Below are positions 6,935 through 23,711 of a stretch of DNA of 24,000 bases, in pieces (within the stretch, counting starts at the first letter, position 1; each line of letters opens with the position of its first letter). The notes beneath the pieces were generated by a model. That model was not told where the DNA came from and made no database searches. It saw only the letters and a list, made by a program, of their open reading frames with translations. Location: contig NZ_BAABEO010000025.1 of NCBI RefSeq assembly GCF_039540195.1, forward strand, positions 83,631 through 107,630, written 5' to 3'. The DNA comes from Arthrobacter ginkgonis. Lineage in GTDB: Bacteria > Actinomycetota > Actinomycetes > Actinomycetales > Micrococcaceae. A program made the translations under genes and the position numbers.

Positions 6935-7010
6935 GAGTGTGCAGCTCCTGTTCAACGTTGGATGCCAGGTCTCCCGCTGGCAGGCATGCCCTTTCGAGCA
7001 CGACTCAGTC

Positions 7011-7028: not shown

Positions 7029-7153
7029 AGTTGTGGGCAAGGCCACAGCGCCAGGGACCCCTCGTGGCATCCCCCGCCGCGAACAGGGTCCCGGCCCGCG
7101 TGGCCGACAATCATCAAAGACCGGGAACGGGTTTTGGAGCTGAGGAGAGAACA

Positions 7154-8095
7154 ATGACGCAAGAAGTGAAAATCCATCCACTGGTGTCGCCCTGGGGCCG
7201 CTTCGGCCTCTACAGCTTCTTCATCGACGCTCCGGAACCGGCCATCGTCGACACCGGCATCGCCTCTTCCCCGGCCAAGGGCATGGCGCCCGCCCTCGAG
7301 AAGCTCGGCCGCCGCATCGAGGATGTGCGCTGGATCCTGCTGACCCACGGCCACATCGACCATCTCGGCGGCGCGCACGCGCTGTGGGAGCTCACGGGCC
7401 GGCGAGCGCAGGTGGTGATCCACGAGGCCGACGCTCCCCTGCTGCGCTCCCGGCGCGCGCACATGGACCAGTACGTGGACGTGCGCCAGCAGTACCTGGA
7501 CAATCCGAACGCCGTGGAGGAACAGACCAGGATGGCGGAGGCGGTCATCTCCGGCGAGATGGAGCCGGCGGTCCTCGTGAAGGGCGGCGAAATCCTTTCC
7601 CTCGGCGGGGACGTCACCGTCTCCGTGCACCACATCCCGGGACACACGGCCGGTTCCGTGGCCTACGTCGTGGACGGGCAGCAGTCCGTTTTCGTCGGCG
7701 ATGCCGTGCAGATCCACGGTGCAGCCAACGGCTTCCCCGGCTACGAGGACCCGCTCGCCTACCGCTCCAGCCTGCGGTACCTGCTCGACGAGGTCCGCCC
7801 GCAGCACCTCTACCTTGGCCACCCCTACCGCGGCGCGGACGGGGTGCCCCACGGCGTCGAACTGGACAGCGAGACGGCCCGGACCGCCCTGCAGGGGAGC
7901 CTGGACCTCGAAGCCAGGATCGACGGCGCCGCCCGCCGGTATCTGCGCGAGGGCCTGCGGGAGACGGACTCGGTGTACTCCCCGTTCGCCCCGGTCGCCG
8001 AGGAGCTCGGCTACGGGGGCGATCCCACGCTGGAGCCCTCCCCCTTCTTCACGACGCTGCACGGCTACCGCCGACTGGAGGCCGCCTCCCGCTGA
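7154..8095 (+). CDS. MBL-fold metallo-hydrolase
   Basis: Start ATG 7154 after GAGGAGAG (7142-7149), inside track ORF 7031..8095. It carries the HxHxDH motif LLTHGHIDHLGG, a downstream metal ligand context HHIPGHTAGS, and GDAV. Confidence 0.8.
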   Translation: MTQEVKIHPLVSPWGRFGLYSFFIDAPEPAIVDTGIASSPAKGMAPALEKLGRRIEDVRWILLTHGHIDHLGGAHALWELTGRRAQVVIHEADAPLLRSRRAHMDQYVDVRQQYLDNPNAVEEQTRMAEAVISGEMEPAVLVKGGEILSLGGDVTVSVHHIPGHTAGSVAYVVDGQQSVFVGDAVQIHGAANGFPGYEDPLAYRSSLRYLLDEVRPQHLYLGHPYRGADGVPHGVELDSETARTALQGSLDLEARIDGAARRYLREGLRETDSVYSPFAPVAEELGYGGDPTLEPSPFFTTLHGYRRLEAASR

Positions 8096-8109
8096 CCCCG
8101 GCACGGACC

Positions 8110-8148
8110 ACGACGGCGGCGCGCCGGGCGGGCGCGCGCCGCCGTCGT
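8110..8148. terminator. Bidirectional GC-rich stem-loop between convergent genes
   Basis: 15-bp perfect stem ACGACGGCGGCGCGC (8110-8124) / GCGCGCCGCCGTCGT (8134-8148) with a 9-nt loop. It lies between the MBL stop (8095) and the membrane-protein stop (8198). Confidence 0.55.
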
Positions 8149-8197
8149 TCCCGGCCGCCTTCGGCCCGATGCGGGATCGGCCCAATCCAGGGTCGAT

Positions 8198-9016
8198 TCA
8201 GTACAGGAAGATCGGCAGCCAGTCGCGGTTGTGTGCGTGCACCAGCGCAAGGAACAGGGCGAAGTCGAAGGTCAGGTGCACCGTGACGACGTAGCTGAAG
8301 GACTTCGTCAGCTTGAAGGTGTAGCCCTGCAGCAGCGCGAACGGAAACGTCAGAAGCGGCCCCCACGCCTGGTAGCCGATCTCCCACAGGAAGGACGAGA
8401 AAACCACGGCTTGAAGGAGGTTGGCCAGCCAATCCGGAAAGTGCCGCCGCAGCAGGGTGAACATGGTGCAGATGAAGAACAGTTCGTCCCAGATGCCGAC
8501 GGTGTTCACTCCGAGGAAGAGCCGCCAGAAGATGGTCGGGTCGGAGGCGTCCGGCCAGTTTTGGTAGACCCCCGTGCGGATCAGGTAGGCGGGCAGAACG
8601 AGGTAGCCGAGAAACACCACGCCGATCAGGTACAGCTTCGCGGGCAACGGCCATTTGCGGCCGGTGTTCACCGGAAACCTGATGATCCTCTCGCGGTAGA
8701 CGAAGCGCGACACCAGCCACGGCACCAGCACGGCCAAGGCGAGCGCCCCGCCCATGAGGGCCATGTGCTGGAGGCTCAAGTCGGCGTTCAGCGGGACCAG
8801 GCTGATGATGACCATTCCCGCCGCTACCAGCGCGAGGTGCCGCATCAGCTCGCGGTCGATGAAAGCCGCCGTGGCCAGGCCCAGGGCAAGGGCGCCGTAG
8901 CCAAGGGGATCGTTTTCGAACCCAAAGAGAAGCACTCCGGACGCGGAGACAAGCGCCGCCGGCACCAGCTTCCAACTGAGGGCGGTACGTGGCGTTTCCG
9001 TCGAGGTCAATGACAC
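8198..9016 (-). CDS. Polytopic membrane protein, possibly a divergent CPBP/Abi-type intramembrane protease homolog
   Basis: 272-aa ORF with about 7-8 hydrophobic segments. WDELFFICTMF resembles CPBP motif 1 (EExxxR) but with E->D and R lost. VVFSSFLWEIGY and VHLTFDFALF resemble motifs 2 and 3. The functional call is tentative. Confidence 0.6.
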   Translation of the reverse strand: MSLTSTETPRTALSWKLVPAALVSASGVLLFGFENDPLGYGALALGLATAAFIDRELMRHLALVAAGMVIISLVPLNADLSLQHMALMGGALALAVLVPWLVSRFVYRERIIRFPVNTGRKWPLPAKLYLIGVVFLGYLVLPAYLIRTGVYQNWPDASDPTIFWRLFLGVNTVGIWDELFFICTMFTLLRRHFPDWLANLLQAVVFSSFLWEIGYQAWGPLLTFPFALLQGYTFKLTKSFSYVVTVHLTFDFALFLALVHAHNRDWLPIFLY

Positions 9017-9043
9017 CCCACCAGCATGTCAGGACGGCACGAT

Positions 9044-9076
9044 GGCGGCACGCATCGCAGGATGATGCGTGCCGCC
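9044..9076 (-). terminator. Stem-loop just downstream of the MFS gene
   Basis: 13-bp perfect stem GGCGGCACGCATC (9044-9056) / GATGCGTGCCGCC (9064-9076) with a 7-nt loop. It lies 17 nt past the MFS stop (9093) in the direction of transcription and 28 nt upstream of the next gene's start (9016). Confidence 0.45.
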
Positions 9077-9092
9077 GTCGTCGACCTTCGTC

Positions 9093-10475
9093 CTACGGGG
9101 CTGCCGTCACGGCGTCCCCGGCGGCGGCCCCGCTGTTTTCGTCGCGGTTGCCTTCGTCCCGGCCCTTCCGTGCTGCCTGCGCAGCGGCCAGCGGAACGAA
9201 GAGGAAGGCCAGGGCGGCAAAGATTCCCGGGATGGCAAAGAAGAGGAAGTTCATCTGCACCGGGAGGCTGAGCGTCAGCAGGACGCCACCGAAGGTCGGT
9301 CCGACGATCGCCCCCAGCCGCCCGACGCCGGAGGCCAGCCCGATCGCCGTCGAGCGCATGAAGGACGGGTAGTACTGGGAGACGAAGGAGTAGGAAATGT
9401 TCTGGGCGCCCATGGTGCACGCACCGGTGATGAACACCAGCACCATCAGGATCGCCATGTTGTTGCCGAATCCCAGCAGCGTCAGCGAGACCGCCGAGAT
9501 CGCGAACATCGGGACGAGCACCTTCTTCACGCCCCACTTGTCGGCGAGCTTGCCCAGCACCAGGGTGCCGGCGATGGCTCCGACGTTCAGGACGATCATG
9601 AAGGTCAGGCTGGAGCCCAGGGCGTATCCGGCCTCCACCATCAGCTTGGGCAGCCAGGTCGAGACGCCGTTGATCATCAACAGGCACATGAAGAAGGCGA
9701 TCCAGATCATGATCGTTCCGAGCGCGCGGCGGTTCTTGAACAGGGCGCCCACCGGGCTACCCGCTTCCTTCTCCTGCAGGCCGGTGAATTCCGCGTCCGC
9801 CGAAAGGGCTGCGGTGGGGTTCACCTTGACCAGCGCCGCACGCAACTCACCGAGCCGCCCCTTCTCCAGGAGCATGGCCGGGGAGTCGACGAAGTACCTC
9901 ATCATGAACGGCAGGAACAGCAGGGGAAGGATGGCGACCCAGTAGACGGCATGCCAGCCGAAGGCGGGAAGCAGCAGCATGGAGACGAAGGCGGCCAGGA
10001 TGCCGCCCACGGAGAAGAAGCACATGACGACGGCGACCAGGGTGTTGGCGCGCCCCCTCGGTGCGTAATCGGTCAGCATCGCGATGAGGCAGGGCAGGAT
10101 GCCGCCGATGCCCAGACCTCCCAGGAAGCGCAGGACGGAGAACTCCAGGGGTCCCGGCGCGAAGCCGCACAGGGCCGAGGCGAGGGAAAAGAGGATGACG
10201 CTGGCCGTGAGGATCCTCTTCCTGCCGAACCGGTCCGCGAGGATTCCGAAGAGGATGGCGCCAACCATCATCCCGAAGATGCCGTAGCTGCCGATGGCCC
10301 CGGCCTGAATGGGATCCAGCGACCATTCCTTCATCAGCACCGGCAGGACCGATCCGTAAACGACCAGGTCATACATGTCGAAAGTGATGATGAAGCAGGC
10401 CCAGAACAGCATTCCGGCGTGGAAGCGGCCGAAACCCGCCCCGCCGATGAAATCCCTGATGTTGATGGTTGTCAT
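9093..10475 (-). CDS. MFS transporter, aromatic acid/H+ symporter (AAHS)-like
   Basis: 460-aa ORF with about 12 hydrophobic segments. It has the MFS loop 2-3 signature GILADRFGRKRIL and a central hydrophilic loop. Overall it resembles PcaK/BenK/MhpT-type transporters (recall only). Confidence 0.8.
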   Translation of the reverse strand: MTTINIRDFIGGAGFGRFHAGMLFWACFIITFDMYDLVVYGSVLPVLMKEWSLDPIQAGAIGSYGIFGMMVGAILFGILADRFGRKRILTASVILFSLASALCGFAPGPLEFSVLRFLGGLGIGGILPCLIAMLTDYAPRGRANTLVAVVMCFFSVGGILAAFVSMLLLPAFGWHAVYWVAILPLLFLPFMMRYFVDSPAMLLEKGRLGELRAALVKVNPTAALSADAEFTGLQEKEAGSPVGALFKNRRALGTIMIWIAFFMCLLMINGVSTWLPKLMVEAGYALGSSLTFMIVLNVGAIAGTLVLGKLADKWGVKKVLVPMFAISAVSLTLLGFGNNMAILMVLVFITGACTMGAQNISYSFVSQYYPSFMRSTAIGLASGVGRLGAIVGPTFGGVLLTLSLPVQMNFLFFAIPGIFAALAFLFVPLAAAQAARKGRDEGNRDENSGAAAGDAVTAAP

Positions 10476-10542
10476 GTCGATTGTCCCTAGTGGTTAACGG
10501 TGCCCGCGGGCACGTGCCGATGAGGTACTTCGGATACAGGTC

Positions 10543-10572
10543 GGCGGCACGAGCCGGATGACTCGTGCCGCC
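10543..10572 (-). terminator. Stem-loop between the esterase stop and the MFS start (terminator/attenuator candidate)
   Basis: 11-bp perfect stem GGCGGCACGAG (10543-10553) / CTCGTGCCGCC (10562-10572) with an 8-nt loop, in the 131-nt gap between 10607 and 10475. Confidence 0.4.
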
Positions 10573-10606
10573 GATGGATAGGCGGAAGGGGCGGGGCCCC
10601 GTGGGC

Positions 10607-11530
10607 TCAGTCCCGTTTCAGGAAGTCGCCTGTTTCCCGGAAGGCCCGGTGGAACTCCGGGATCCAGGAGAAGTTCTGGACGAAGCCGTGGTTGGACCCG
10701 GCGTAGCGGCTGACCGTGGCGTCGACGCCGGCCTCCTTGAGGCGGTAGCCGTAGAGTTCGCCCTCGTCGCGCAGGGGGTCGTACTCGGCCGTGATGACCA
10801 GGGCCGGCGGCAGGCCGGACAGGTCCTCGCGCTTGATGGGCGAGACGAGGGGATCGGCCGGATCCGCCCCGCTCTCGAGGTAGAAGGAGTTGAAGGGTTT
10901 GAGGCCCGCCGTCTCCAGCCCGTACCCTTCGGCGTTCTCCCGCAGCGAGGCGTAGCGGTCGACGTCGAAGTCCAGGTCCAGCGACGGGTAGAACAGCACC
11001 TGGTGCGTGATGCCGGCGAACCCGTCGTCGTGGGCCTTGGCGGCGACCGCGGCCACGAAGGTCCCGCCGGAACTGTCGCCGGCGATGGCGAGGTTCTTCC
11101 CGTCCCAGCCCAGCCTCTGCCCCTGCCCGGCGGCCCAGCGGACCACCCCGTAGCAGTCCTCCAGGCCCGCCGGGAAGGCGGCCTCGGGGGCCCGGCGGTA
11201 GCCCACGGAGATGACCTTGTGGCCGGTCTCCCTGGCCAGGGACCGCGCGACGTGGTCGTGGGTGTCCAGGCTGCCCAGGAAGAACGCGCCGCCGTGGAAG
11301 TACACCAGCAGGCCGTAGGTCTCCGCCTCCACCGGCGTGTAGATCCGCACGGGCACCTGTCCGGCTGAAGTCTGCAGGGTCAGGTCCTCAACGGAGTGCA
11401 GCGGCAGGCGCTCCTCCAGCGGGGCAACCATGGATTCCTCGTGCGCGCGCATGGCCTCCGGGTTCAGCGGAGAGCCATCCGGAGCAGGAAGGGTGGCGAG
11501 GATCTTGGCGATTTCGGGATGGATAGCCAT
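10607..11530 (-). CDS. Alpha/beta hydrolase, hormone-sensitive-lipase (family IV) type esterase
   Basis: Oxyanion motif VYFHGGAFFLGS (HGG), nucleophile elbow IAGDSSGGT (GDSxG), acid ITAEYDPLRDE, and histidine GSNHGF. Confidence 0.85.
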   Translation of the reverse strand: MAIHPEIAKILATLPAPDGSPLNPEAMRAHEESMVAPLEERLPLHSVEDLTLQTSAGQVPVRIYTPVEAETYGLLVYFHGGAFFLGSLDTHDHVARSLARETGHKVISVGYRRAPEAAFPAGLEDCYGVVRWAAGQGQRLGWDGKNLAIAGDSSGGTFVAAVAAKAHDDGFAGITHQVLFYPSLDLDFDVDRYASLRENAEGYGLETAGLKPFNSFYLESGADPADPLVSPIKREDLSGLPPALVITAEYDPLRDEGELYGYRLKEAGVDATVSRYAGSNHGFVQNFSWIPEFHRAFRETGDFLKRD

Positions 11531-11545
11531 TGGGCGACCTCGGCC

Positions 11546-12655
11546 TTACTGGTTGGCCGGGAACGCGGAGTCCACCGCGTCGGCGTGCCAGCCGAGGCGG
11601 GAGACGCGCTGCAGTTCATCCGTCACCGGTTTGCGGGTGGCCTGGTAGATCGACAGCGCGTCCTTCACGGAGTCGCCCTGCAGGAGCGCCTCGGCGAGGC
11701 CGTCGGCATCCAGGATCGCCGAGTTCGCGCCCTGGCCCTGATGGTGGAGCATCGCGTGGGCCGCATCGCCCAGCAGCGCGACGGAGTCGGTGTGCCACGA
11801 GTCGACCGAATCGATGTCGAACACCGAACGGCTCGTCACCTGGCTCAGGTCGAGCTCCCGGGCGACCTGGACGATCCGCTCATCGAAGCCTTCCAGGATC
11901 TTCACGAGGTACTCGGTCGAGATCTCCGGCGCCCACGAGTCGTCGTCGGACGGGGCCGTGATGTCGTAGGAGAGCTGCCCGCGGTGACGCAGCGGCAGGT
12001 TGTAGGCGATCGTGCCGTTCTCGCCCATGTAGAAGCGCGGGTTGTCGTCCGTCACCAGCCCGTGGGCGTCCTCGATCGAAATGACCGCACGGTAGGCGTG
12101 CTCGCCGGAGAACACCGGCTCCTTCTGCGAGAACAGTTGGTTGCGCACCGTCGAGCGGATGCCGTCGGCGCCGATCACGAGGTCGGCGGTGACTACCTCG
12201 CCGTTCGCGAAGGTCAGCGTCGCGTGGTCGCCGTTGTCCTCGATGGTCTCCAGCTTGTGGCCGAGGTGCACCATGCCCTCGGGGAGCACGCTGAGCAGGG
12301 CGTCGATGAAGTCCCCGCGGTGGATCATGCGGTTGTGGTTGACCTGCTCGTAGGCGTTCAGGAACGGCCACTCCTCGTTCGCCAGGACGTGCTTGCCGTC
12401 CGCGCTGAGGATCTCCAGGTGGTCGCTGGGCGAGCTCACCGCGGCGATCGCATCGAAGATGCCCCACTTGCGGAACAGTTCGACCGACGGCGGGCGCAGC
12501 CCGATGCCGGCGCCGACCTGGGCGAGGGCGGATGCCTGCTCATAGACGTGGACATTTTCCGCGCCGATGCTCTGCAGCGCCTTGGCCACGGAGGCCCCGC
12601 CGTAGCCGCCGCCGACGATGGCGATCTTGAGGTTCTGAATTTCCGAAGCCTTCAT
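11546..12655 (-). CDS. Class A FAD-dependent aromatic-ring monooxygenase (salicylate / 6-hydroxynicotinate hydroxylase-like)
   Basis: Real start ATG 12655 (MKASEIQNLKIAIVGGGYGGASVA), inside the over-extended track ORF 11546..13774. Motifs are GxGxxG, DG motif VIGADGIRSTVR, and GD motif LLGDAAHAMLHHQGQGANSAILDA. Confidence 0.85.
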   Translation of the reverse strand: MKASEIQNLKIAIVGGGYGGASVAKALQSIGAENVHVYEQASALAQVGAGIGLRPPSVELFRKWGIFDAIAAVSSPSDHLEILSADGKHVLANEEWPFLNAYEQVNHNRMIHRGDFIDALLSVLPEGMVHLGHKLETIEDNGDHATLTFANGEVVTADLVIGADGIRSTVRNQLFSQKEPVFSGEHAYRAVISIEDAHGLVTDDNPRFYMGENGTIAYNLPLRHRGQLSYDITAPSDDDSWAPEISTEYLVKILEGFDERIVQVARELDLSQVTSRSVFDIDSVDSWHTDSVALLGDAAHAMLHHQGQGANSAILDADGLAEALLQGDSVKDALSIYQATRKPVTDELQRVSRLGWHADAVDSAFPANQ

Positions 12656-12720
12656 TGTTTTTCTCTTTCTTGACCCAGGGCGTCCCTGGAAAAACGGGGG
12701 TGTGGTGGTGTGCCGAAGGA

Positions 12721-13674
12721 TCAGGCCTGGATCGCCAGGAAGTCGGCAGGGTTCTCTTCGAAGATGGCCTTGAGCTGCGCGTCGCCGATGCCGTTGGTGC
12801 GCATGTCGGGGATCAGCACCTCGAAGATGTAGTTCACGGTGTGGCCCTTGACGCCGGGCCAGCCGAGCGGGCTGCAGTTGGCGTCGGCGGAGACGAGGAG
12901 CTGGTCGAGGTATCCCTTGCCCACCAGGTCGATGAAGTGGTCCATGCGGTCCTTGCGCGGACGGGCCCAGAACGGCGGGTCCGGGAGCTCGGTTTCGTAG
13001 CCGAAGGTGTCGAAGCCGATGCGGCCGCCTTCGCCCATGATCATTTCGCTGGGGGTGCTCGCCGCGTTCAGGCCGTCGTCGGCGTGCCCGAAGAGCACGC
13101 GGTCCAGCGGCAGGCCCTCCTCGCGGAAGATCGCGATCGCCGGCTCGGGGTCGATGGCCAGGTGGGTGAGGACCGGCACCCCGGTCACGACGGCGGCGCG
13201 GGCCGCTGCCCGGTAGATGCGCTTGTCCAGTTCGGTCATGCGGCCACCGCGGCTTACGCCGACCTTGATGATGCCGGCCTTGCTGCCGGTGTCCCCGATG
13301 CCCACGGTGATCTCGTGGATGAAGACCCGGGCCAGGTAGTCGACGGTCGCACGGGCGAAGTGCGGCAGCGCGGTGTCCCCGCCGACGAACCCGGTGCAGG
13401 CGACGATGTTGACGCCGGTCTTCCTGGACAGGGACTTGTAGTAGTCGATGTCGCGGCCGTTGCAGATGCCGGTGGCGTCGACGAAGGTCCCGCCGCCGTT
13501 TTCGTGGAACGTGCGCAGCTTCGGCACCGTCTCTTCGTAGGCCTGCTCGGGCGTCTTCCACCACTTGGAGTCCAGCTCGGACCCGGGCATGCCGTATCCG
13601 ATGTGCTCGTGGATGGCCACCAGGCCCAGTTCTTCGGCCGGGATCGTCCCCAGCACGGTGTTTACCTTGGTCAT
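12721..13674 (-). CDS. Phosphotriesterase-family (PTE/PLL-like) amidohydrolase with a canonical metal-ligand set
   Basis: VAIHEHI (HxH), AGIIKVGVS (candidate carboxylated Lys), VPVLTHLA (His), VLFGHADD (His), LLVSADAN (Asp). RBS GAGGGGA precedes the ATG at 13674. Confidence 0.8.
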   Translation of the reverse strand: MTKVNTVLGTIPAEELGLVAIHEHIGYGMPGSELDSKWWKTPEQAYEETVPKLRTFHENGGGTFVDATGICNGRDIDYYKSLSRKTGVNIVACTGFVGGDTALPHFARATVDYLARVFIHEITVGIGDTGSKAGIIKVGVSRGGRMTELDKRIYRAAARAAVVTGVPVLTHLAIDPEPAIAIFREEGLPLDRVLFGHADDGLNAASTPSEMIMGEGGRIGFDTFGYETELPDPPFWARPRKDRMDHFIDLVGKGYLDQLLVSADANCSPLGWPGVKGHTVNYIFEVLIPDMRTNGIGDAQLKAIFEENPADFLAIQA

Positions 13675-13721
13675 TACTGTCCCCTCGGGAAAAAGCTTGT
13701 TGGGTGTGTGCCGCCGCGCGT

Positions 13722-14705
13722 TCAGCGCACCGACAGCAGGTTGCGCGGGTTGTCGACGAGGATGCGCTGGGCATCCTCGTCGCTCAGGCCCTGCGACTTG
13801 AGGAAGGGCGCGAACGTGGACAGGACGTAGCTGTACGGCAGGTCGTAGTCCGGCAATCCCTTGGCCACGCCGATCGCGTTGCCGGACAGGATGATCTGGT
13901 GCCCGTGGCCGGCCGCGACGAGTTCGAGCACCAGGGCCGCGCGCTCGCGGTCGGTGAGGTAGTCGCCGTCGTCGTTCAGGCCGACGTGGTCCAGGCCCAC
14001 GAAGGCCCCCCGGCGGGCCACCTCATGGGCGGCGCCGGCGGCGTCCTTGCGGTCAAGGTCCCCCACAAGCACCCGGTCGGCCGGAATCTTCTCCTCCAGC
14101 ACGACGTCGAGGTCGTGCACGGCGTCGGCGCCGAAGCGGATGGACACCGGCACCCCGGTGTCCAGCGCGGCGCGGGCCGAACCGCGGAACAGGCTCTCCT
14201 CGGTGGCGGTCATGCCGCTGCGGTCGGCGGTGGTCGTGACGATGCCGGCGGCGGCACGGCGCTCAACGCGGGGGACCACCATGCCCTCGGTGACCTCCTT
14301 GGAGAAGAGGTCCGCGAACTTCTCGGCCGGCCACGGGGTCGGGGGGTTGGTCTGCGGCGTCAGAAAGTAGCCGCCGAGCTCCTCCTCGGGGCCAAGGCCC
14401 GTGGAGGCGACGATGTGCACGCCGGTAGAGCGGGACAGGGCCTCGTAGAGCTTGAGGTCGCGGCCGTGGAACATGCCTGTACTGTCGACGATGGTCTTTC
14501 CGCCCTGGGCGCGGAAGTCCGCCAGCTTCGCGGCCAGGATCTCGAAGATCTCCGCCCGGTCCATGGTGATGTCCGGGGCGTACTGGGCGCCGGGGAGCAC
14601 CGAGAGCAGGGCCTCGTGGACCCCGACAACACCCAATTCGTGAGCGGGGACGGGGCCAAGGACCGTGTTGACGGTTTGGCCGGTGACATTCGTTGTATCC
14701 GTCAT
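13722..14705 (-). CDS. PTE-family paralog with most metal-ligand positions substituted (possible pseudoenzyme or partner subunit)
   Basis: It is colinear by eye with the downstream PTE gene (TVNTVLG.VPA.ELG.V..HE..., GG.T.VD.TG...GRD...Y..LSR.TGV.IVA.TG, AAGIV, TGVPV, DRVL.G). The ligand positions read VHEALL (second His->Ala), GIVTTTA (Lys->Thr), VSIRFG (His->Arg), LVGDLDR (His->Asp) and ILSGNAI (Asp->Asn). The ATG at 14705 has GAAAGG 8 nt upstream; the track start is GTG at 14711. Confidence 0.7.
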   Translation of the reverse strand: MTDTTNVTGQTVNTVLGPVPAHELGVVGVHEALLSVLPGAQYAPDITMDRAEIFEILAAKLADFRAQGGKTIVDSTGMFHGRDLKLYEALSRSTGVHIVASTGLGPEEELGGYFLTPQTNPPTPWPAEKFADLFSKEVTEGMVVPRVERRAAAGIVTTTADRSGMTATEESLFRGSARAALDTGVPVSIRFGADAVHDLDVVLEEKIPADRVLVGDLDRKDAAGAAHEVARRGAFVGLDHVGLNDDGDYLTDRERAALVLELVAAGHGHQIILSGNAIGVAKGLPDYDLPYSYVLSTFAPFLKSQGLSDEDAQRILVDNPRNLLSVR

Positions 14706-14905
14706 TGGCACAACCTTTCGTCAGCGTCACGCCCTCATTGGCGTCACGCGCTGGGAAGGATCATGCACCGCGCGACCTCTGGATGGATCCTCGCCGAACT
14801 CGGTGCAGGCGATGTAAACGAAGGAGACAGCGCGCGGGGAGCCCAGGATCCGCTATGGACCCTAGTCCCCTGCTCGCGCCTGTGACCTTGATTACCTGCG
14901 TACTA

Positions 14906-14933
14906 GATTTACATGTTGTTATGCCAAAGTCAA
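14906..14933 (-). promoter_or_regulatory. Candidate sigma70-type promoter for the PTE operon, with an adjacent CTAG-centred element
   Basis: On the minus strand: TTGACT (14933-14928), a 16-nt spacer, then TAAATC (14911-14906). This is the only AT-rich stretch (14886-14935) in the gap between the GntR stop and the PTE-like start. GTACTAGAT (14899-14907) half-resembles the HutC/DasR-type core GTCTAGAC. Confidence 0.3.
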
Positions 14934-14985
14934 TGGAGAGTCTCCCGCAGCTGGCCGCGCTCCTCCTTCGGGGCCCGGCGGCGAC

Positions 14986-15729
14986 TCAGCGGCTGGTGGT
15001 GAACCGGTACTTGAAATCCTCGGCACGGTGCACCGCGGAACGCCATCCCGCGGGCAGGCCCCCGGTCGTGAAGAAGGTTGTCTCGATGACGAGCAACGGG
15101 CTCCCCTCGCCCACGCCGAAGGTCGCCGCCTGGCCGGCGGTTGCCGCCGTCGCCCAGGCTTCGTGCTCGGCCCGGTCGAGCGTGATGCCGAACTCCCGCT
15201 CCAGCAGCTCGAAGGCGGATCCCCGGTCTTCCAGTTCCTCAATCGAGGGGCTGAACTCCTCGGGCGCGCGAACATAGATGCTGGCTTCCACGAGAGGCTC
15301 GTTCTCGACCGAGATCAACCGGATGAAATGCAGGAGCCGTTCGTGCGCTTCGAGCCCCAAGAGGTCCCGAATCCGGGCGGGGGGTTCCACGCGTTCGATG
15401 CCGGAAACCGTCCCGGTCGGATGCAGTCCGCTGTCGGAGAGGTACTGGTACAGGGCCCCCGACCGCACGTCGGCCGGCCGCCGCACCCGGGCACCCGTGA
15501 CCGGGAACGTCCCCTTGCCTTGCTTCCTGTAGACGTACCCCTCGCTGACGAGCTCCTGGAGGGCCTGCCGGATGGGCGCCCGGCTGACGTCGAATCGGCC
15601 GAGCAGCTGCGCCTCGGTCATCGGCGTGTTGGGATCCACGTTTCCCTCGGCGATCTCCCTGCGCAGGATTTCCTTGATCTGCCGATACAGGGGTACCCCG
15701 GACGAGGGATCGAGCTCGCCATATGCCAT
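14986..15729 (-). CDS. GntR-family transcriptional regulator, HutC subfamily (wHTH + UTRA effector domain)
   Basis: Likely start ATG 15729 ([29 protein letters not shown]...[35 protein letters not shown]). The C-terminal half has a UTRA-like layout (chorismate-lyase fold pattern). Confidence 0.8.
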   Translation of the reverse strand: [247 protein letters not shown]

Positions 15730-15826
15730 CAGTCTTCTGTTCCTCCACGCCAGGTGCCACCGGGTTGTAGCCTGCAGGAAGTCAACCACAGAACGGCGAA
15801 AGCATAGGCGACGGCGTTCGGCAGCC

Positions 15827-15854
15827 TTGACGGGTCAATCCATCTCTATACAGT
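15827..15854 (+). promoter_or_regulatory. Candidate promoter for the DUF2231 gene
   Basis: TTGACG (15827-15832), a 16-nt spacer, then TACAGT (15849-15854, TANNNT type), 30 nt upstream of the GTG at 15884. Confidence 0.35.
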
Positions 15855-15883
15855 CGAGCCGCGTCGGCGTAGCGTCAGCAAGC

Positions 15884-16423
15884 GTGAGCGAATTGTCACT
15901 GCCGCAACGACTGGCCCGGGCCGTGGGCGAAAGTTCCCTCTCGGAACGGGTGGCTGTCGCCCAAGAGCGCGTCTACGGACCGGTTATCGACTGGGCGCGG
16001 CGCAGCCCCTTTCACACCAGCGTCCTCGGCCACTCCGTGCATCCACCCCTCACCGACGTGACGCTTGGATGCTGGATGAGTGCGTCCATCCTCGACCTCG
16101 CCGGAGGACCCCAGGCACGGCGCGGTGCCACGCTCCTGGTCGGAGCCGGGCTGGCGGCGGCCGGGCCGACCGCCCTTGCAGGCACCAGCGACTGGGCGGA
16201 AATGAACGGCCCCGAGCGGCGGATCGGCGCGGTACACGCACTGGGCGCCAATGCCGCCGCCTTCCTTTTCCTCGGTTCCCTGATCGCGCGGATGCGCGGC
16301 CGCCATGGCCTCGGCGTGGGTCTGGGTCTCGCCGGAAACGCCATCGCGGCCGGAGCAGGATTCCTGGGCGGGCATCTGGCGCTCACCCACGGAACGGCCC
16401 GGCGGACCACCGAAGCCACCTAG
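15884..16423 (+). CDS. DUF2231-like membrane protein
   Basis: Within track ORF 15572..16423, with a proposed GTG start at 15884 (VSELSLPQRL...). It has the motif GHSVHPPLTDVTLGCWMSASILDL followed by 3-4 hydrophobic segments. The start codon is uncertain. Confidence 0.55.
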   Translation: MSELSLPQRLARAVGESSLSERVAVAQERVYGPVIDWARRSPFHTSVLGHSVHPPLTDVTLGCWMSASILDLAGGPQARRGATLLVGAGLAAAGPTALAGTSDWAEMNGPERRIGAVHALGANAAAFLFLGSLIARMRGRHGLGVGLGLAGNAIAAGAGFLGGHLALTHGTARRTTEAT

Positions 16424-16507
16424 CCACCAATCGCCCGGGCCTGCACCGGCCCACTGGCAGGACGCGGCCCAGGAATACCCGCCGTCGCCGTCGGGTTGGC
16501 TCCTGAT

Positions 16508-16783
16508 GTGAAGAAGATCGGATTCCTGTCCTTCGGCCACTGGACCGACCACCCGCAGTCCGGCACGCGCAGCGCGTCGGACGCGCTCCTGCAGGCGATC
16601 GACCTCGCGGTCGCGGCCGAGGAGCTCGGCGCGGACGGCGCCTACTTCCGTGTTCACCACTTCGCGCAGCAATACGCCTCCCCGTTCCCGCTGCTCGCCG
16701 CGATCGGGGCACGGACCAGCCGAATCGAGATCGGCACGGGCGTCATCGACATGCGCTACGAGAATTGCAACTCCATGAATTGA
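16508..16783 (+). pseudogene. 5' fragment of an LLM-class (luciferase-like) flavin-dependent oxidoreductase gene, truncated by insertion
   Basis: VKKIGFLSFGHWTDHPQSGTRSASDALLQAIDLAVAAEELGADGAYFRVHHFAQQYASPFPLLAAIGARTSRIEIGTGVIDMRYEN matches the N-terminal roughly 25% of LLM enzymes of about 330-350 aa. After the Asn codon (16763-16765) the frame reads CNSMN-stop, and the integrase gene begins within about 10 nt. Confidence 0.65.
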
Positions 16784-16800
16784 GCTACCTTGGGTAGCGT
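16745..16800. other. Host/element junction (attL-like); crossover inferred near 16765-16768
   Basis: LLM homology by eye ends at ...MRYEN (codon 16763-16765). The element-derived sequence tgcaactccatgaattgagctaccttgggtagcg runs into the integrase start. The exact core dinucleotide cannot be determined from one junction. Confidence 0.4.
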
Positions 16801-18352
16801 GACCGACAACCGCCTCCGCGCTGTGCTGTACCTCAGATTGTCGGCTGTGTCCGACGACTCCACCAGCCTCGATCGTCAGGAAAGAGACCTGCGCGAGCAC
16901 GCCGGGCGCAAGGGCTGGCACGTCACCGAGGTCCTCGTAGATGAAGGCATCTCCGGCAGGAAAGCCCGCGCCAAGGCCGCCGAGGCCGTCCGTATGATCG
17001 CCGACGACGAGGCCGACGTCCTGGCCGTGTGGAAGTTGGACCGCTTTACAAGAATGGGCTATGACGGGCTCGGCGCGCTCTCCCAGGCCCTCGCCACCCG
17101 CGCCGAGGGCGCCAAGGCTGGCCGGTGCATCCCGGCGCTATTCGTCGCCCTGCATGACGGCCTCAATTCCAATCAAGCCGCGTTCCGCATGATCGCGGGC
17201 GTATTGAGCGAGGTTGCCAGGAGCGAGGCCGAGAACGCCGCCGCGCGCATTGCTAACTCGATCGAGCACCGCAAGACACGGACCCATAAATTCGCGGGAG
17301 GGTCCGCCGTGCCGCTCGGCTACCGCTCTGTCCCGGCGCCGGACGGTACGGGGCGCATCCTCGTACACGACGACGAGGAGGTCGCCCTTATCCGCGACGT
17401 GGCGGCGCGCATCCTCTCCAATATCGAGTCGCTTACCGGCATCGCCGCCGACCTGAACAAGCGCGGCGTGCCGACGTCCAGGTCGCTCGCGCGCCGCGCG
17501 CTCCGCCAGGGGTTGCCCGCCGAGGGCCTGGATACTGGCAAGTGGACTGTGTCGACGTTCCGCAACGTCTGGACGTCCGACGTGCTCCTCGGCCGCGTCG
17601 TGCATCGTGGCAAGTTCGTTTCCGACGCCGCCGGAATCCCCTTGGCCGTATGGCCGCCGATCCTGGACCGCTCCACCCTGGACGCTCTCCGCGTCCGCAT
17701 GAACTGGAAGCCGCGCAAGGATCAACGCGGCCCGCTGGGGCTCCCGCCCGCGCCGAAACCGAAGGTCCAACCTACCCGCAAGCGTGCCGCGCGGATCTTG
17801 TCGTCGGTCGCGTTCTGTGGGCTCTGCGACTCGCGCCTGTACGTGACGACGACGTCGGGCACACCTATCTACAAGTGCGGGTCTAGCTGGAATGGTGAGA
17901 AATGCCCTTCGCCGTCGATCACCGCCGACGCCCTGGACGAGTACGTCGCCGCCCGCGTCCTGGCCGTCGCCGGAGAGTGGCCCGAAATGGCTACCGAGAC
18001 GATCGCCAGCGGCGGCGCCCCCGAGGCGACCCTCGCCGAGATCGAGGCTCTCCTCCGCGAGGCGTCCGTCGCCATGACGGAGGACGACGCCCAGGTGCCG
18101 GAACTCCTGGAGCGGATCGCCGGACTCAAGGCCCGCCGTGCCGACCTCCGCGCCCGCCCCGTGACCGTCGAGACCGTAAGCAAGCCCACCGGCCGCACGC
18201 TGGCCGAGGCATGGGACGCCGACGAGGGCACCGCCTGGCGCCGTTCTGTCCTCCTATGGGCGATCGACCATGTCCGCGTCGGTCCGCGTACGCCCGGCAT
18301 GGGCACCCGCGCATTCGACGAGGACCGCGTCGCGATCTACTGGAACTCCTGA
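16790..18352 (+). CDS. int: Large serine recombinase (Bxb1/phiC31-type serine integrase)
   Basis: N-terminal resolvase domain with a catalytic Ser context AVLYLRLSAVSDDSTSLDRQ, and VWKLDRFTR. It also has a recombinase domain, zinc ribbon FCGLCDSRLYV...YKCGSSWNGEKCPS, a coiled-coil segment (EIEALLRE...LLERIAGLKARRADLRAR) and a C-terminal WRRSVLLWAIDHVRV. The architecture parallels Bxb1 gp35 as I recall it. The start is TTG 16790 or GTG 16799. Confidence 0.9.
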   Translation: MGSVTDNRLRAVLYLRLSAVSDDSTSLDRQERDLREHAGRKGWHVTEVLVDEGISGRKARAKAAEAVRMIADDEADVLAVWKLDRFTRMGYDGLGALSQALATRAEGAKAGRCIPALFVALHDGLNSNQAAFRMIAGVLSEVARSEAENAAARIANSIEHRKTRTHKFAGGSAVPLGYRSVPAPDGTGRILVHDDEEVALIRDVAARILSNIESLTGIAADLNKRGVPTSRSLARRALRQGLPAEGLDTGKWTVSTFRNVWTSDVLLGRVVHRGKFVSDAAGIPLAVWPPILDRSTLDALRVRMNWKPRKDQRGPLGLPPAPKPKVQPTRKRAARILSSVAFCGLCDSRLYVTTTSGTPIYKCGSSWNGEKCPSPSITADALDEYVAARVLAVAGEWPEMATETIASGGAPEATLAEIEALLREASVAMTEDDAQVPELLERIAGLKARRADLRARPVTVETVSKPTGRTLAEAWDADEGTAWRRSVLLWAIDHVRVGPRTPGMGTRAFDEDRVAIYWNS

Positions 18353-18376
18353 GAGCCGCCCGGCGGCCCCGTACGG

Positions 18377-18406
18377 AAGCCCCGGACACATTCCTGGCCG
18401 GGGCTT
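18377..18406 (+). terminator. Stem-loop after the integrase gene
   Basis: AAGCCCCGG (18377-18385) / CCGGGGCTT (18398-18406) with a 12-nt loop, followed by TCCTATTCCC. It lies 25 nt after the stop. Confidence 0.45.
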
Positions 18407-18983
18407 TCCTATTCCCGCACACGGGCGCCCAGAGCCGCCCAGGAGACCGCCCGGCACCGCGCGGCCTAGGCGTTCCGCGCCCGTCCTCCGCGCTTCTAGG
18501 TCCAGTCCCGCGCCTGGATCCTGGCGCCGACCCGAGGAGCCCCAGACGCCCCGCTGAGGCCCTCCTCTTGTCTCCGGCGGCTGGCGCCGGTCCTGTCCGC
18601 GCGAGGCCCGGAGGTGGCCACGTGGCGACCTTGGATCCCTGCGCCGTGGCCAGGCTGGCGGGCGGCGCCCGCCTCGGCGAGATGCCAGCCCGTTTACACG
18701 CCGAGGACAACGCGGGAGGAGGCGGCCGTCGCCCCCGTGCCAGTTTCCCCGCCAGGAGGCGCCGCCCCAGGATCCGCCCGTGCCCGGCGGGCCTGAAGGC
18801 TCTGGCCCGGTTCCGAGGCCGCCAGGCGGCCGCCCAGGGCGCCGGAGGAGGTGGCGGCGGTTCGCCCTCGCGGGGAGAGGGCGGCCCGCCCCGTGCCCGC
18901 GTCCGTGCCAGCGCGGGAGACGACGGCCGGAGGCGCCGGAGAGGTCGTTTTCCCGACCCTGGACGCCTGCGTCTGAGCCTAAA

Positions 18984-19092
18984 GGTGGTGGAAGTGGTGA
19001 AAGTGGAGGTACTTCTCTATCCGTTCTCAAGTAAAGCCATTACTTGAGTAGAGATATAGAGAGACCACCACTTTCGCCACTTTCACCACTTC
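18984..19092. repeat. Module 1: inverted arrays of 9-bp GTGGNGNNN units flanking an AT-rich core with a central hairpin
   Basis: Left array is GGTGGTGGAAGTGGTGAAAGTGGAGGT (18984-19010). The right array, as its reverse complement, is GAAGTGGTGAAAGTGGCGAAAGTGGTGG (19092-19065). The identical 16-mer GAAGTGGTGAAAGTGG lies at 18991-19006 and inverted at 19077-19092. TCTCTAT/ATAGAGA is also inverted. The central hairpin is CTCAAGTAA (19026-19034) / TTACTTGAG (19040-19048) with a 5-nt loop. Confidence 0.8.
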
Positions 19093-19223
19093 GGGCCGTC
19101 ACCGGCCGCCCTGGCCCGCTCCCCGCGCGATCGTGACCGGCCGCACGCCCCGGCCGTGGACAGTTTCGGCGCTCCTGGCGGTCTTCTCTCTTGTAAGCAC
19201 CCGACCACGACCCCGGCCCGGTC

Positions 19224-19387
19224 GGATCCGCATTTAACGGACCCTGGCCGTCTACTCAGACGGGAGAGACCCGCGCATTTGTAACACCCCCGGCCGTCTA
19301 CTCAGACGGGAGAGATCCGCGCCCGCGTCCTGTACGCCCGGCCGTCTACTCCAGTAGGAAAGATCCGCGCCGCGTGCGCCTGGATCC
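19224..19387 (+). repeat. Tandem direct repeat, period 46-48 bp, about 3 copies, each with a conserved 31-bp core containing a 6-bp hairpin
   Basis: GGCCGTCTACTCAGACGGGAGAGACCCGCGC begins at 19246 and GGCCGTCTACTCAGACGGGAGAGATCCGCGC at 19292. A degenerate copy GGCCGTCTACTCCAGTAGGAAAGATCCGCGC begins at 19340. CCGTCT-ACTC-AGACGG is self-complementary. Flanking (GA)TCCGC(GC)ATTTRTAAC is also repeated before copies 1 and 2. Confidence 0.85.
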
Positions 19388-19404
19388 TCCCCCCCACCAA
19401 GTTT

Positions 19405-19610
19405 GAACCGTCCGCGCCCGCGCACTCTCCGGGGCGCGGCGGTTCGCACCCCGTCCGAGCGGCCTAAGCCCCCGCTCGGCGCTGGCCCTCGTGGCCGGTC
19501 TTTTCATGGATGGGACCCGGTAGCCCCGCCGCCGTAAACCCGGCGGGGCTACTGCCCTCCTGTCCGTGAGCCCTCACCCGCCGCCGTACCCTCGGCGGCA
19601 TTTTCATTTG
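19405..19610 (+). ncRNA. Structured untranslated region: four or five consecutive GC-rich hairpins, the last terminator-like (candidate leader/attenuator or small RNA)
   Basis: H1 at 19405-19445 pairs GAACCG(T)CCGCGCCC with GGGCGCGGCGGTTC. H2 at 19455-19479 pairs CCGAGCGG with CCGCTCGG. A weak stem with TCTTTTC lies at 19482-19505. H3 at 19520-19552 pairs GTAGCCCCGCCG with CGGCGGGGCTAC (12 bp, perfect). H4 at 19580-19599 pairs GCCGCCG with CGGCGGC and is followed by ATTTTCATTTG (to 19610). No ORF covers the region. Whether this is an RNA, and on which strand, is inferred. Confidence 0.3.
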
Positions 19611-19648
19611 CCAAACAAAGTAAGCCAACGCCCGAAAGGAGGCCGCCC

Positions 19649-19864
19649 ATGGCCGACCATGTCTGTCTCATTTGTCACCGCCCGTTCACTGGCCAGGCCA
19701 GCGCGGAAACGTGCTCTACAGCCTGCCGAGTCACCCGCTCCCGGCGGCGCAAGGAGGCCGAGCGCCGGAAGGCCCTGGACCTCCTGGCCCGCATGGCCAC
19801 CGCCCGCGACCCGGCCGTCGTCGAGTCGCTCCGGCGCGAGGCCGAGCGCCTCACCCGCGACTAG
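19649..19864 (+). CDS. Small zinc-ribbon-like basic protein (71 aa), function unknown
   Basis: Strong RBS GAAAGGAGG sits 6 nt before the ATG. The sequence MADHVCLICHRPFTGQASAETCSTACRVTRSRRRKEAERRKALDLL has a CxxC-x12-CxxxC arrangement followed by an Arg/Lys-rich helix. Confidence 0.7.
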   Translation: MADHVCLICHRPFTGQASAETCSTACRVTRSRRRKEAERRKALDLLARMATARDPAVVESLRREAERLTRD

Positions 19865-19870
19865 CCCGCG

Positions 19871-19944
19871 AGTGGTGAAAGTGGCGTTTGTGGTCTTTCT
19901 TCTGTTCGTTTCTACAGTTCTGCTCTCTCTAGCCACACCACACC
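19871..19944. repeat. Module 2: a second GTGG-unit array, pyrimidine/AT-rich core and CCAC-rich inverted partner
   Basis: AGTGGTGAAAGTGGCG (19871-19886) is identical to the reverse complement of 19075-19090 in module 1. It continues TTTGTGGTCTTTCTTCTGTTCGTTTCTACAGTTCTGCTCTCTCTA, then GCCACACCACACC (19932-19944). It starts 7 nt after the zinc-ribbon gene stop. Confidence 0.7.
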
Positions 19945-20171
19945 CCCCCAAACTCACCCCCCACACGCTGACTAGGCGAAATGCGCCTATTTGCCCGCCT
20001 ACGCATGGTGCGTGTGGTGAGTAGCCGGCCCCTATTTACAGCGGCCGGCAATTCACGCGGGGAGAGCCTCCGGCCCTTACGCCCGGAGGGCGTTTGTGTC
20101 CCTCCAACTCACGCCCGCAAGTACCGCCCCACACCGGGGCACCGCCCCCACCCCTTGAAAGGACCCCCACC

Positions 20172-23075: not shown

Positions 23076-23711
23076 ATGAACATCGAGACCACCGCCACCG
23101 AGACCAGCAAGCCGAATCACACCCCGGAACAGCGCCGCTATGACCGCGCGGTTTACCGCCGCGTTAAGCGCGGCATGGAGCACAGCGCCAGGTTCGCCGC
23201 CGCCGACGCCGCAACCGCCCCGCTCGCCCTCATGGCGCCCCACTCCCGCGCGGCCTGGCTGGCCCTGGACGAGGCCGCACGCCTGGACCATTTGCGCCAG
23301 GTCCTCCGCGCCCAGGCTAAGGCCGTCATCGGCCCGCGCCCGGAGGACGTCGAGGAGACCGCACCGGCCACCGTCGAGACCACGGCCGCACCGGCCACCG
23401 TCGAGACCACGGCCGCACCGGCCACGCCTGCCCGCCCCTCCGGCCGCCGCCTCGTCGTTGCCTGCATCGGCGGGTGCGGAACCTGGATAGTCGCCACCTC
23501 GGCCCGGCCCGCCGTCGTGCGATGCACGCCCGGCCAGCGCCGCGCCCAGCGCGAGGACCCGACCGGCGCCGCTCCCGTTGAGGCCCGCTCGTCGCACGCC
23601 GCGACCGCCTCGGCCGTCGACTACTCCGCCGCCCGTGCCGAGCGCCCGGCCGCCGCCCAGGGTAGGCGCAAAGCCAAGCGCCGCGCCCGCGCCGCGACCT
23701 GCGGCAAGTAG
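23076..23711 (+). CDS. Hypothetical protein (211 aa); long member of the second paralog pair, with a 9-aa tandem repeat and a Cys-containing basic C-terminal extension
   Basis: ATG is preceded by ACGAAGGACCCAACCCC. EQRRYDRAVYRRV...FAAADAATAPLALM...WLALDEAARLDHLRQVLRAQAKAVIGPRPEDVEE is paralogous to the upstream ORF. It continues with PATVETTAA x2.5, then VVACIGGCGTWIV...VVRCTPGQRR and an RRKAKRRARA tail. Confidence 0.65.
   Translation: MNIETTATETSKPNHTPEQRRYDRAVYRRVKRGMEHSARFAAADAATAPLALMAPHSRAAWLALDEAARLDHLRQVLRAQAKAVIGPRPEDVEETAPATVETTAAPATVETTAAPATPARPSGRRLVVACIGGCGTWIVATSARPAVVRCTPGQRRAQREDPTGAAPVEARSSHAATASAVDYSAARAERPAAAQGRRKAKRRARAATCGK
23361..23428 (+). repeat. In-frame 27-bp tandem repeat, about 2.5 copies
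   Basis: GCACCGGCCACCGTCGAGACCACGGCC occurs at 23361-23387 and identically at 23388-23414, with a partial copy GCACCGGCCACGCC at 23415-23428. Confidence 0.9.

Follow-up and report, generated by a model that had tools for sequence, protein, structure and literature searches.

Phage satellites of the PICI/SaPI type (phage-inducible chromosomal islands and Staphylococcus aureus pathogenicity islands) are small integrated islands of about 10-15 kb that have an integrase and no virion or lysis genes, together with a master repressor, a divergent control region, a primase-replicase with its origin, and TerS or capsid-redirecting genes; a helper phage induces, replicates and packages them. An integrative island of Arthrobacter ginkgonis is compared here with these satellites and with other described systems. 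The island begins within a stretch of 24,000 nucleotides (nt) of contig NZ_BAABEO010000025.1, termed the window, and has a gene-free block of 1296 bp (positions 18353-19648) between its serine integrase gene and its first cargo gene. On balance, we lean towards reading the block as the non-coding control region of a small, phage-satellite-like island, assembled from cis-acting signals of the type found in Arthrobacter phages of cluster AZ. These signals are a palindrome of short repeats (iterons) and a bipartite, promoter-like box.

Several properties recall the PICIs. A related island of 11 kb in Arthrobacter sp. NPDC089319 (locus L123) is a small integrase-bearing element without virion or lysis genes and has restriction-modification cargo, a TerS-like gene is present in relatives of the window island, and insertion is site-specific, with a serine integrase beside a truncated host gene. 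Unlike the PICIs, the islands have no recognised master repressor or divergent module, no primase-replicase and no capsid-remodelling genes. Their control region is a non-coding cassette of 0.5-1.3 kb, apparently copied from helper-type phages, and their hosts are Micrococcaceae. Judged by the lack of a recognised repressor module or replicase, the islands look like a satellite-like family outside the PICI definition.

The satellite P4 and its helper P2 have late promoters that are activated by the same activators, Ogr and delta, and the P4 alpha protein, a primase-helicase, binds iterons both in ori and in the distant crr. In a similar manner, the island would carry promoters of the helper type, and an AZ phage genome has two iteron sites. 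The primase-helicase of AZ phages consists of Toprim, D5_N and SF3 helicase domains, an architecture that we take to be that of the alpha protein as well. The iteron CTTTCACCAC resembles that of P4, which we take to be TGTTCACC. P4 has its own alpha protein and origin, whereas the islands have no replicase; in addition, specificity in the islands would come from a sigma factor and not from an activator.

Repeated short motifs are also known from mycobacteriophages. The stoperators of cluster A are single sites of 13-14 bp that are bound by the repressor and present in at least 20 copies, also in structural operons; the SAS/ESAS motifs of cluster K may be compared. These motifs share with the AZ box a short, asymmetric sequence, an orientation with transcription and genome-specific variants. 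The AZ box differs from stoperators in being bipartite, in its copy number (8 in KeAlii and 8 in Adolin, the two genomes examined) and in its absence from the structural arm.

Some phages encode a sigma factor with its own multi-copy promoters, for example Bacillus phage SPO1 (PMC13401047). The AZ phages are similar in having a conserved motif, not of the sigma-70 type, before many operons as well as a sigma gene. They differ in that the link between sigma factor and box is one that we infer, and the motif is also found on a separate island that has no sigma gene. According to a preprint (10.1101/2025.05.26.655371), the "DNA binding protein" conserved in cluster AZ is homologous to sigma factors, and these phages have no known repressor. 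The sigma assignment is confirmed for KeAlii gp42, which matches phrog_351 at E = 1.6e-19 and sigma factors of the PDB from E = 4e-7.

The closest likeness to the block is seen in the cassettes of the AZ phages KeAlii, Adolin, Sue2, VResidence and Emotion. They have inverted arrays of about three 9-bp iterons, a low-GC core and a box 60-90 nt downstream, are placed after the serine integrase gene or at the head of an operon, and can be aligned with the window. The phage box is 45-60 nt from a start codon, whereas the window has one complete and three partial boxes followed by a 210-nt leader that contains terminators. The window also adds a GC-rich spacer of 570 bp, and except for the integrase the island has no phage proteins.

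The non-coding block and its signals

The block is the largest stretch of the window without a gene supported by GC content at third codon positions (GC3); the runner-up measures 307 bp. An earlier note had described the block as free of genes amid a coding density near 90%, and the overall coding fraction is indeed ~0.88. Within the block, GC content does not vary with codon position; the integrase and downstream genes show the usual GC3 pattern. The shadow open reading frames (ORFs) listed in the note are present and, as it had judged, none is protein-like, with no Pfam family matched. A cryptic gene was rejected on the flat GC3 and the lack of a Pfam match. A pseudogene of the 114-amino-acid (aa) gene that a related island of Pseudarthrobacter sp. 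NPDC092184 (locus L136) carries at this place was rejected as well, as tblastn gave no match.

ARAGORN finds no tRNA or tmRNA in the block. The proposed Infernal check against Rfam 15 came back empty, with no family at the gathering threshold or in E-value mode and only sub-threshold microRNA-hairpin matches on the palindrome. Promoters of the sigma-70 type (TTGACA, 16-18 nt, TATAAT-like) number 0 in the window block, L123 and L136. A sigma-54 promoter was also rejected, the spacing being wrong by eye; to our knowledge, Actinobacteria have no sigma-54.

The features of the block, and a half-unit just beyond it, are listed by window position. R2 denotes a sequence model built from phage box sites only.

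18412-18984, no strand: GC-rich spacer (~570 bp, ~77% GC) with flat GC by codon position; contains a hairpin at 18534-18568
18985-19089, no strand: palindromic iteron unit of 105 bp, with 50-nt arms that are 80% complementary
19156-19188, + strand: complete bipartite box of the phage type (GTGGACAG, 11 nt, CTGGCGGTCTTCTC), 67 nt after the palindrome; best R2 match of the window
19242-19276, + strand: 35-nt repeat 1, partial box; R2 match at 19241-19258, E = 0.44
19288-19322, + strand: 35-nt repeat 2, partial box copy
19336-19370, + strand: 35-nt repeat 3, partial box; R2 match at 19338-19355, E = 2.7
19401-19609, + strand: structured leader or short RNA with five hairpins; minimum free energy -126.8 kcal/mol, z = -6.2
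19401-19449, + strand: leader hairpin 1
19452-19481, + strand: leader hairpin 2
19482-19498 (plus UCUUUUCAU), + strand: leader hairpin 3, resembling an intrinsic terminator; from the terminator scan, with a U-run after the stem
19503-19570, + strand: leader hairpin 4
19580-19599 (plus AUUUUCAUUU), + strand: leader hairpin 5, resembling an intrinsic terminator; from the terminator scan, with a U-run after the stem
19866-19915, + strand: palindrome half-unit (GTGGTGAAAGTGGCG and a CT-rich segment; repeats D3 and I2), outside the block and before the gene for a 285-aa protein

Each arm of the palindrome has three 9-bp repeats (GTGGTGRAA) and then a CT-rich segment. Between the inverted arrays is the lowest-GC 60-mer of the whole window, at 38% GC compared with ~69% for the window overall. 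The arrays, which have a 9-bp period, thus flank an easily melted AT-rich segment, as in iteron origins. A cognate initiator gene is found on none of the islands; in the phages and in a marine contig described below, the unit is accompanied by the Toprim, D5_N and SF3 primase-helicase. The 13-mer GTGGTGAAAGTGG occurs 6 times at two or fewer mismatches, compared with 0.31 expected. The half-unit at 19866-19915 belongs to the same system as the block palindrome. Together with a 27-nt tandem repeat at 23359-23425, it lies outside the block, contrary to the earlier statement that every unusual repeat family of the window is within it. The repeat density claimed for the block is real, as the palindrome, the 13-mer and the 35-nt repeats show; the hairpin density goes beyond base composition only in 19370-19615.

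Downstream of every palindromic unit that can be aligned is a second motif, the bipartite box (G/C)TGAGCA(A/G), 11-12 nt, CTGGC NNN CT N CTC. In the window the box is on the gene strand and within 60-90 nt of the palindrome, as in the phage cassettes (8-mer, 10-12 nt, YTGGC NNN CT N CTC). R2 places its top match of the window here, at 19161-19194 (13.5 bits, E = 0.004). Each of the 35-nt repeats is a partial copy of the box (CYGGCCGTCTACTC and a purine-rich tail), of the type seen at the right end of AZ genomes, where KeAlii and Adolin have GTGTAAACG in place of GTGAGCAG. The segment 19326-19357 is 81% identical to Adolin 42230-42261, the last Adolin box, which is this variant. A CRISPR array was considered for the 35-nt repeats and rejected, with three copies set 46 and 48 nt apart, hence spacers of 11-13 nt where a CRISPR array would have unique ones of about 30 nt, and with the copies homologous to promoter-like phage boxes.

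The leader has RNA structure beyond composition on one strand: in 19370-19615, z is -6.2 for the + strand and -2.45 for the - strand. Two GC-rich stem-loops ahead of the first cargo gene, 19482-19498 and 19580-19599, each end in a U-run, as in attenuator leaders, and the terminator ~40 nt before the ribosome-binding site (RBS) of this gene is kept in three islands. These properties accord with an attenuator, an antitermination site or a short RNA; the leader may control how much transcription passes into the cargo genes, or may itself be a short RNA. RNA structure in the box region and in the GC-rich part was rejected: 19090-19375 is less structured than its shuffles (z = +1.9), and the values for 18412-18984 (z = -1.6 and -1.4) are not significant.

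Within 18412-18984, only 18533-18596 and two short words match L123. Homology with that island starts at ~18533, and ~300 nt of the GC-rich part of the window have no L123 counterpart; searches of phages and of the other islands gave no match. The 9-mer GTGTAAACG is present on the minus strand in the window (18691-18699) and in L123 (8976-8984). On the + strand it directly precedes the palindrome in phages and in two islands, L134 (1630-1638) and L136 (5061-5069), and it is also found in L001 at ~9499 (+). The 9-mer thus recurs by the palindrome in phages and islands, on a side and strand that vary between elements. GGATCC is found five times in 18516-19387, with about one expected from its window frequency.

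Counterparts in phages and related islands

No phage matches the whole block by blastn at E <= 1e-5, and the link to phages is seen only with a short palindrome query at a relaxed E-value. With a query of 116 nt, the matches apart from those due to chance are all to unannotated intergenic DNA of Arthrobacter phages, namely Emotion (87% coverage, E = 6e-4), Sue2 and KeAlii. Homologous units are found in the AZ phages Emotion, KeAlii, Sue2, Adolin and VResidence and in the islands L123, L134 and L136. Thirteen AZ records have one to three palindrome places each. In KeAlii (L132) and in Adolin (L133), one unit precedes the exonuclease gene and another directly follows the integrase gene; the two flank the replication module. 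The iteron word varies by phage, being GTGACGAAA, GTGGTGAAA or ATGACG. When the window unit is aligned with eight from phages and islands, 17 of 32 arm pairs are seen to keep their symmetry through changes on both sides, a pattern compatible with symmetric protein binding as well as with a hairpin.

A search of metagenomes with the window iteron in palindromic arrangement gave 15 contigs with the same 9-mer and layout. Six of these have a GC content of 46-49% (L215, L217, L218, L221, L224 and L225), and at least one is from a marine metagenome. In L215 (marine, 49% GC), the palindrome has the iteron GTGGTGAAA and is situated at 754-850, with a 196-aa ORF upstream of it and an exonuclease gene after it; genes for a primase-helicase (Toprim, D5_N and SF3) and PolA come next, which is the AZ order. 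The 196-aa ORF has the same length as KeAlii gp26. In the high-GC contigs the unit adjoins a primase-helicase or serine integrase gene. The palindrome therefore travels with the replication module across very different genomes, and this raises an origin-like reading alongside that of an operator. Searches of viral contigs with 14-mer and 17-mer iteron words gave chance matches only.

The boxes of KeAlii and Adolin are exactly eight in each genome, all on the + (coding) strand and none in the structural arm; they stand before non-structural operons and a tRNA gene.

KeAlii (L132), + strand: boxes at 20089, 21627, 23327, 26635, 29117, 36510, 39358 and 41108
Adolin (L133), + strand: boxes at 18340, 19842, 21555, 24786, 27277, 36388, 40105 and 42242

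Seven of the eight in each genome are in gaps 45-60 nt before start codons or before a tRNA gene, often right after an intrinsic terminator; the remaining one is within the 3' end of the primase-helicase gene and precedes the gene that follows. Each genome has its own version of the first ten bases, the same at all of its sites (KeAlii CTGGCGCACT, Adolin CTGGCCCTCT, Emotion CTGGCGCTCT, VResidence TGGCTCTCTT). Such uniformity within genomes, with differences from one genome to another, speaks for a reader that the element itself encodes, and we propose that the phage sigma factor uses the box as its promoter type. As far as could be found in the AZ literature, neither the palindrome-plus-box cassettes nor the eight-copy motif has been described.

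The islands can be assigned to phage subtypes. The first L123 box, GTGGGCCG-N10-CATCTGGCGCTCTCCT, equals the Emotion box in both halves and in spacing, and the palindromes of the two also align; the other two L123 copies share the CTGGCGCTCT core. The boxes of L136 and L134 are of the Adolin subtype. The window box is collinear with those of L123 and Emotion. The top R2 match of L123 is at 9183-9217 (E = 2e-6), with a further one at 9252-9273 (E = 0.0015), and that of L136 is at 5267-5304 (E = 3e-4). R2 finds no match at E <= 0.05 in 617 kb of unrelated viral DNA and no significant box in the host part of the window (16.8 kb).

L123 was reached through the 285-aa protein, which has a 59%-identical relative there. 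The island is inserted in a Tad pilus gene cluster, has Tad genes on both sides and contains no structural or virion genes. Its order is a serine integrase gene, a gap of 810 bp, a gene for a 72-aa zinc-ribbon protein, and orthologues of the window genes for proteins of 285, 243, 95 and 211 aa. Three small genes follow and, on the opposite strand, two uncharacterised genes and an XhoI-like restriction-modification pair; this cargo, at 15046-17407, consists of an XhoI-like restriction enzyme and an Eco57I/N6-type methyltransferase. From the palindrome onward the gaps of the window and L123 are collinear: the palindrome, three CTGGC..CT.CTC copies (homologous to the 35-nt repeats), the terminator and, after the zinc-ribbon gene, the half-unit (from 9773 in L123). 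The L123 leader has the same five-hairpin layout (z = -5.0) and a terminator at the same place, with little sequence identity. The integrases of the two islands are 26% identical and the cargo proteins 52-59%. As the same cassette stands behind so different an integrase, the block belongs to the cargo module and not to the integrase. The attP site of the integrase was rejected as an explanation, since the same palindrome follows unrelated integrases.

Word-indexed protein searches gave the one relative only, and an exhaustive HMMER profile search gave 70 members of the 285-aa family. Further loci read are L134/L135 (a soil metagenome contig), L136/L137 (Pseudarthrobacter sp. NPDC092184, where the insertion adjoins a Mg-chelatase-family gene) and L138 (another contig). 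L134, L136 and L138 all have a serine recombinase and the iteron palindrome. An AZ-type box is downstream of the palindrome in L134 and L136, and L138 has R2 box matches only. L136 also has the terminator, a shorter version of the leader with the same layout by eye, an uncalled zinc-ribbon ORF (an orthologue) and the half-unit at the same place (from 5700). In L134, as in the phages, the box is directly before a gene, with no structured leader. The cassette is thus found behind unrelated integrases and at unrelated insertion sites in at least four islands, and most of the right 660 bp of the block consists of elements kept in related islands and in cluster AZ phages, the conservation that the earlier note had asked to see. 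L134 has, in addition, a second palindrome at 3419-3506, with another iteron word (TTGCACCAC) and 17-nt arms that are 100% complementary, directly upstream of the 268-aa family gene.

The TerS-like protein of L123 matches phrog_1496 at E = 1.5e-7; that of L136 matches Terminase_4 at E = 1.5e-4, below the Pfam cut-off, and phrog_1496 at E = 2e-3. The integrase aside, no homologue of an island protein was found among AZ phages or any other phage records, and protein-guided scans of viral contigs gave none. Sigma or primase domains are found in no island ORF (for the window island, in the portion up to 24000), and hhalign of the phage sigma factor with the island families gave probabilities of 1-1.5%.

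Weighing the explanations

Outside the islands, the palindrome and the boxes are known only from a single group of Arthrobacter phages, which the island therefore probably senses and exploits. The binding proteins, the direction of control and the helper relationship are here deduced from sequence patterns. The island, which has no sigma factor or primase-helicase of its own, would respond in trans to the proteins of any AZ-type phage active in the same cell. The phage sigma factor would fire the island boxes, and the iteron palindrome would be the target of a conserved protein from the replication module of the phage and would serve as an origin-like site, an operator at the operon head, or both. 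Transcription would have to be strong, or antiterminated, to pass the terminator-laden leader, which would otherwise keep the cargo operon silent. This operon includes the TerS-like gene in relatives.

The earlier inference of a cis-acting or RNA function holds in general terms. It was unspecific, and it took the block as one unit, although the left ~570 bp have no detectable role. As to the functions proposed, the layout favours an origin-like and/or operator-like iteron array, promoter-like boxes of a phage type and a structured leader with terminators, which would suit antitermination, attenuation or a short RNA; nothing supports a centromere or clt. A non-coding RNA gene is compatible with the structured leader, despite the lack of a known RNA family.

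Several points weigh against control by AZ-type phages. No phage was found to have the box subtype of the window: the search gave 74 single chance matches and no box clusters. The window's own box matches are modest, including that of the complete copy, and a host alternative sigma factor could be the reader. Two terminators separate the boxes from the first gene, so transcription from the boxes may yield no more than a short RNA. The palindrome may be an origin, an operator, an insulator or an RNA hairpin, and the ~570-bp GC-rich part has no homologue, periodicity or significant fold. No helix-turn-helix, repressor, replicase or capsid-redirecting gene is recognised in any island ORF, most of the proteins being orphans, so that absence is not proven. 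The window island extends past 24000, and its size, its TerS-like gene and its lack of structural genes are known from relatives only. The AZ preprint makes no mention of promoters or of these motifs (10.1101/2025.05.26.655371).

If motifs are shared because phages and islands use common host machinery, the region may be self-contained, with no helper; the palindrome would be an operator for an island or host protein, and the boxes would be read by a host alternative sigma factor. The palindrome is always directly upstream of a box at an operon head, with a half-unit before the next operon, and the zinc-ribbon protein, whose gene is flanked by units, is a possible binding protein. The lack of sigma-70-type promoters in these regions means that some non-standard promoter must exist. 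However, the box half-sites are uniform per genome and yet differ between KeAlii and VResidence, which have the same host strain (A. globiformis B-2979), and this argues for an element-encoded reader. The AZ phages encode their own sigma factor, the island subtypes match particular phages, and the host DNA of the window has no significant box; we therefore regard a self-contained region as unlikely. Alternatively, the product could be RNA, with the DNA repeats secondary. The boxes would drive one or more short non-coding RNAs (~100-450 nt) whose 3' ends are set by the terminators at 19498 and 19599; these would act in trans, for example on phage transcripts, or as a cis attenuator. The strand-specific fold, the five hairpins that recur in L123 despite low identity and the terminator conserved in three islands all speak for this, and the right-end AZ box precedes tRNA genes, so a box can drive RNA genes. 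Yet the leader matches no Rfam family, its two or three homologues do not align reliably enough for covariation, and in L134 the box is ~60 nt before a protein gene that has no structured leader. An RNA product, which is compatible with control by AZ-type phages and not exclusive of it, is given little weight as the main function.

It is very improbable that the block is a decayed remnant of an AZ-like prophage, with fossil motifs of no present function. Such a remnant would account for the AZ-like integrase (~60% identity), for the left 570 bp without homologue, structure or periodicity, and for the three 35-nt repeats as degenerate boxes. It does not accord with a cassette and gene order shared by at least four islands whose integrases and insertion sites are unrelated and whose proteins are only ~55-60% identical, or with the 70 members of the 285-aa family. 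Both the boxes and the palindromes keep undamaged subtypes that correspond to those of living phages, and besides the integrase no AZ phage protein gene is left.

Control by AZ-type phages can be carried further, tentatively. The islands would then be a new actinobacterial family of phage satellites that have almost no machinery of their own and carry the cis-signals of a helper, namely tandem promoters for its sigma factor and an origin-like palindrome for its primase-helicase. The lytic programme of the helper would switch on, and possibly replicate, the island, and subtypes would be tuned to each helper lineage (Emotion-like in L123, Adolin-like in L136 and L134). In such a family, extra box copies might titrate the helper sigma factor.

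If phage control applies, a minimal island depends on a phage through borrowed DNA signals and not through its own regulators, and the islands add a satellite-like family to the very few satellites described from soil Actinobacteria. The comparison also exposes an undescribed regulatory layer in the AZ phages, a genome-specific promoter-like motif and a palindromic iteron unit present 2-3 times per genome, which fits the phage sigma factor of the 2025 preprint and may bear on the control of these repressor-less temperate phages. Emotion and Adolin are in culture collections, and matching islands are present in sequenced Arthrobacter and Pseudarthrobacter strains, so the proposal is open to experiment.

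Insertion site and minor features

Host chromosomal genes, which include those for a peptidase, an MFS transporter, hydrolases and a GntR regulator, fill positions 1-16783 of the window. The features around the integrase and at the head of the cargo operon are as follows.

16496-16783, + strand: N-terminal fragment of a luciferase-like monooxygenase gene; matches Pfam Bac_luciferase at profile positions 3-75 of 314 only
~16760-16798: left junction (attL), from reading the sequence; no more than ~40 bp from the integrase start codon
16799-18352, + strand: large serine integrase gene of the island, GTG start at 16799; domains Resolvase, Recombinase and Zn_ribbon_recom
18372-18411, + strand: hairpin I7, putative integrase terminator, with 17-nt arms that are 82% complementary, directly 3' of the integrase stop codon
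19634-19864, + strand: RBS (GAAAGGAGG) and first cargo gene (19649-19864), encoding a 71-aa zinc-ribbon protein; L123 orthologue 52% identical

The monooxygenase gene is interrupted by the island, with the first ~95 codons (the first quarter) left. The truncated gene and the adjoining integrase therefore place the start of the integrative element at ~16790, and the element extends beyond the end of the window. The integrase is 100% identical to a protein of A. ginkgonis, and the identity of ~60% given above is to integrases of cluster AZ phages; a genome scan with the window integrase gave one distant prophage and nothing else. Hairpin 18372-18411 is probably the terminator of the integrase gene.

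An annotation conflict was noted in the phages. The first gene of KeAlii (L132, 69-521) is annotated as "minor tail protein" and its Adolin homologue (L133, 85-537) as "terminase small subunit"; both belong to phrog_226, which PHROGs labels "minor tail protein".

The AlphaFold model of the 285-aa protein has a pLDDT (predicted local distance difference test) of 39.6, too low to use. The window cargo holds two paralogous gene pairs, 21182-21607/21676-22407 (141 and 243 aa) and 22748-23044/23076-23711 (98 and 211 aa), and several cargo genes have a near-identical ribosome-binding and start context. The 27-nt tandem repeat at 23359-23425 is perfect, has 2.5 copies within the 211-aa gene and codes for a repeated TVETTAAPA peptide. 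The region before the 285-aa gene (window 20030-20171; L123 9861-10000; L136 5860-6000) is untranslated and ~69% conserved between the window and L123. It has a hairpin followed by TTTGTGTCC, which is similar to the 3' part of the phage box.

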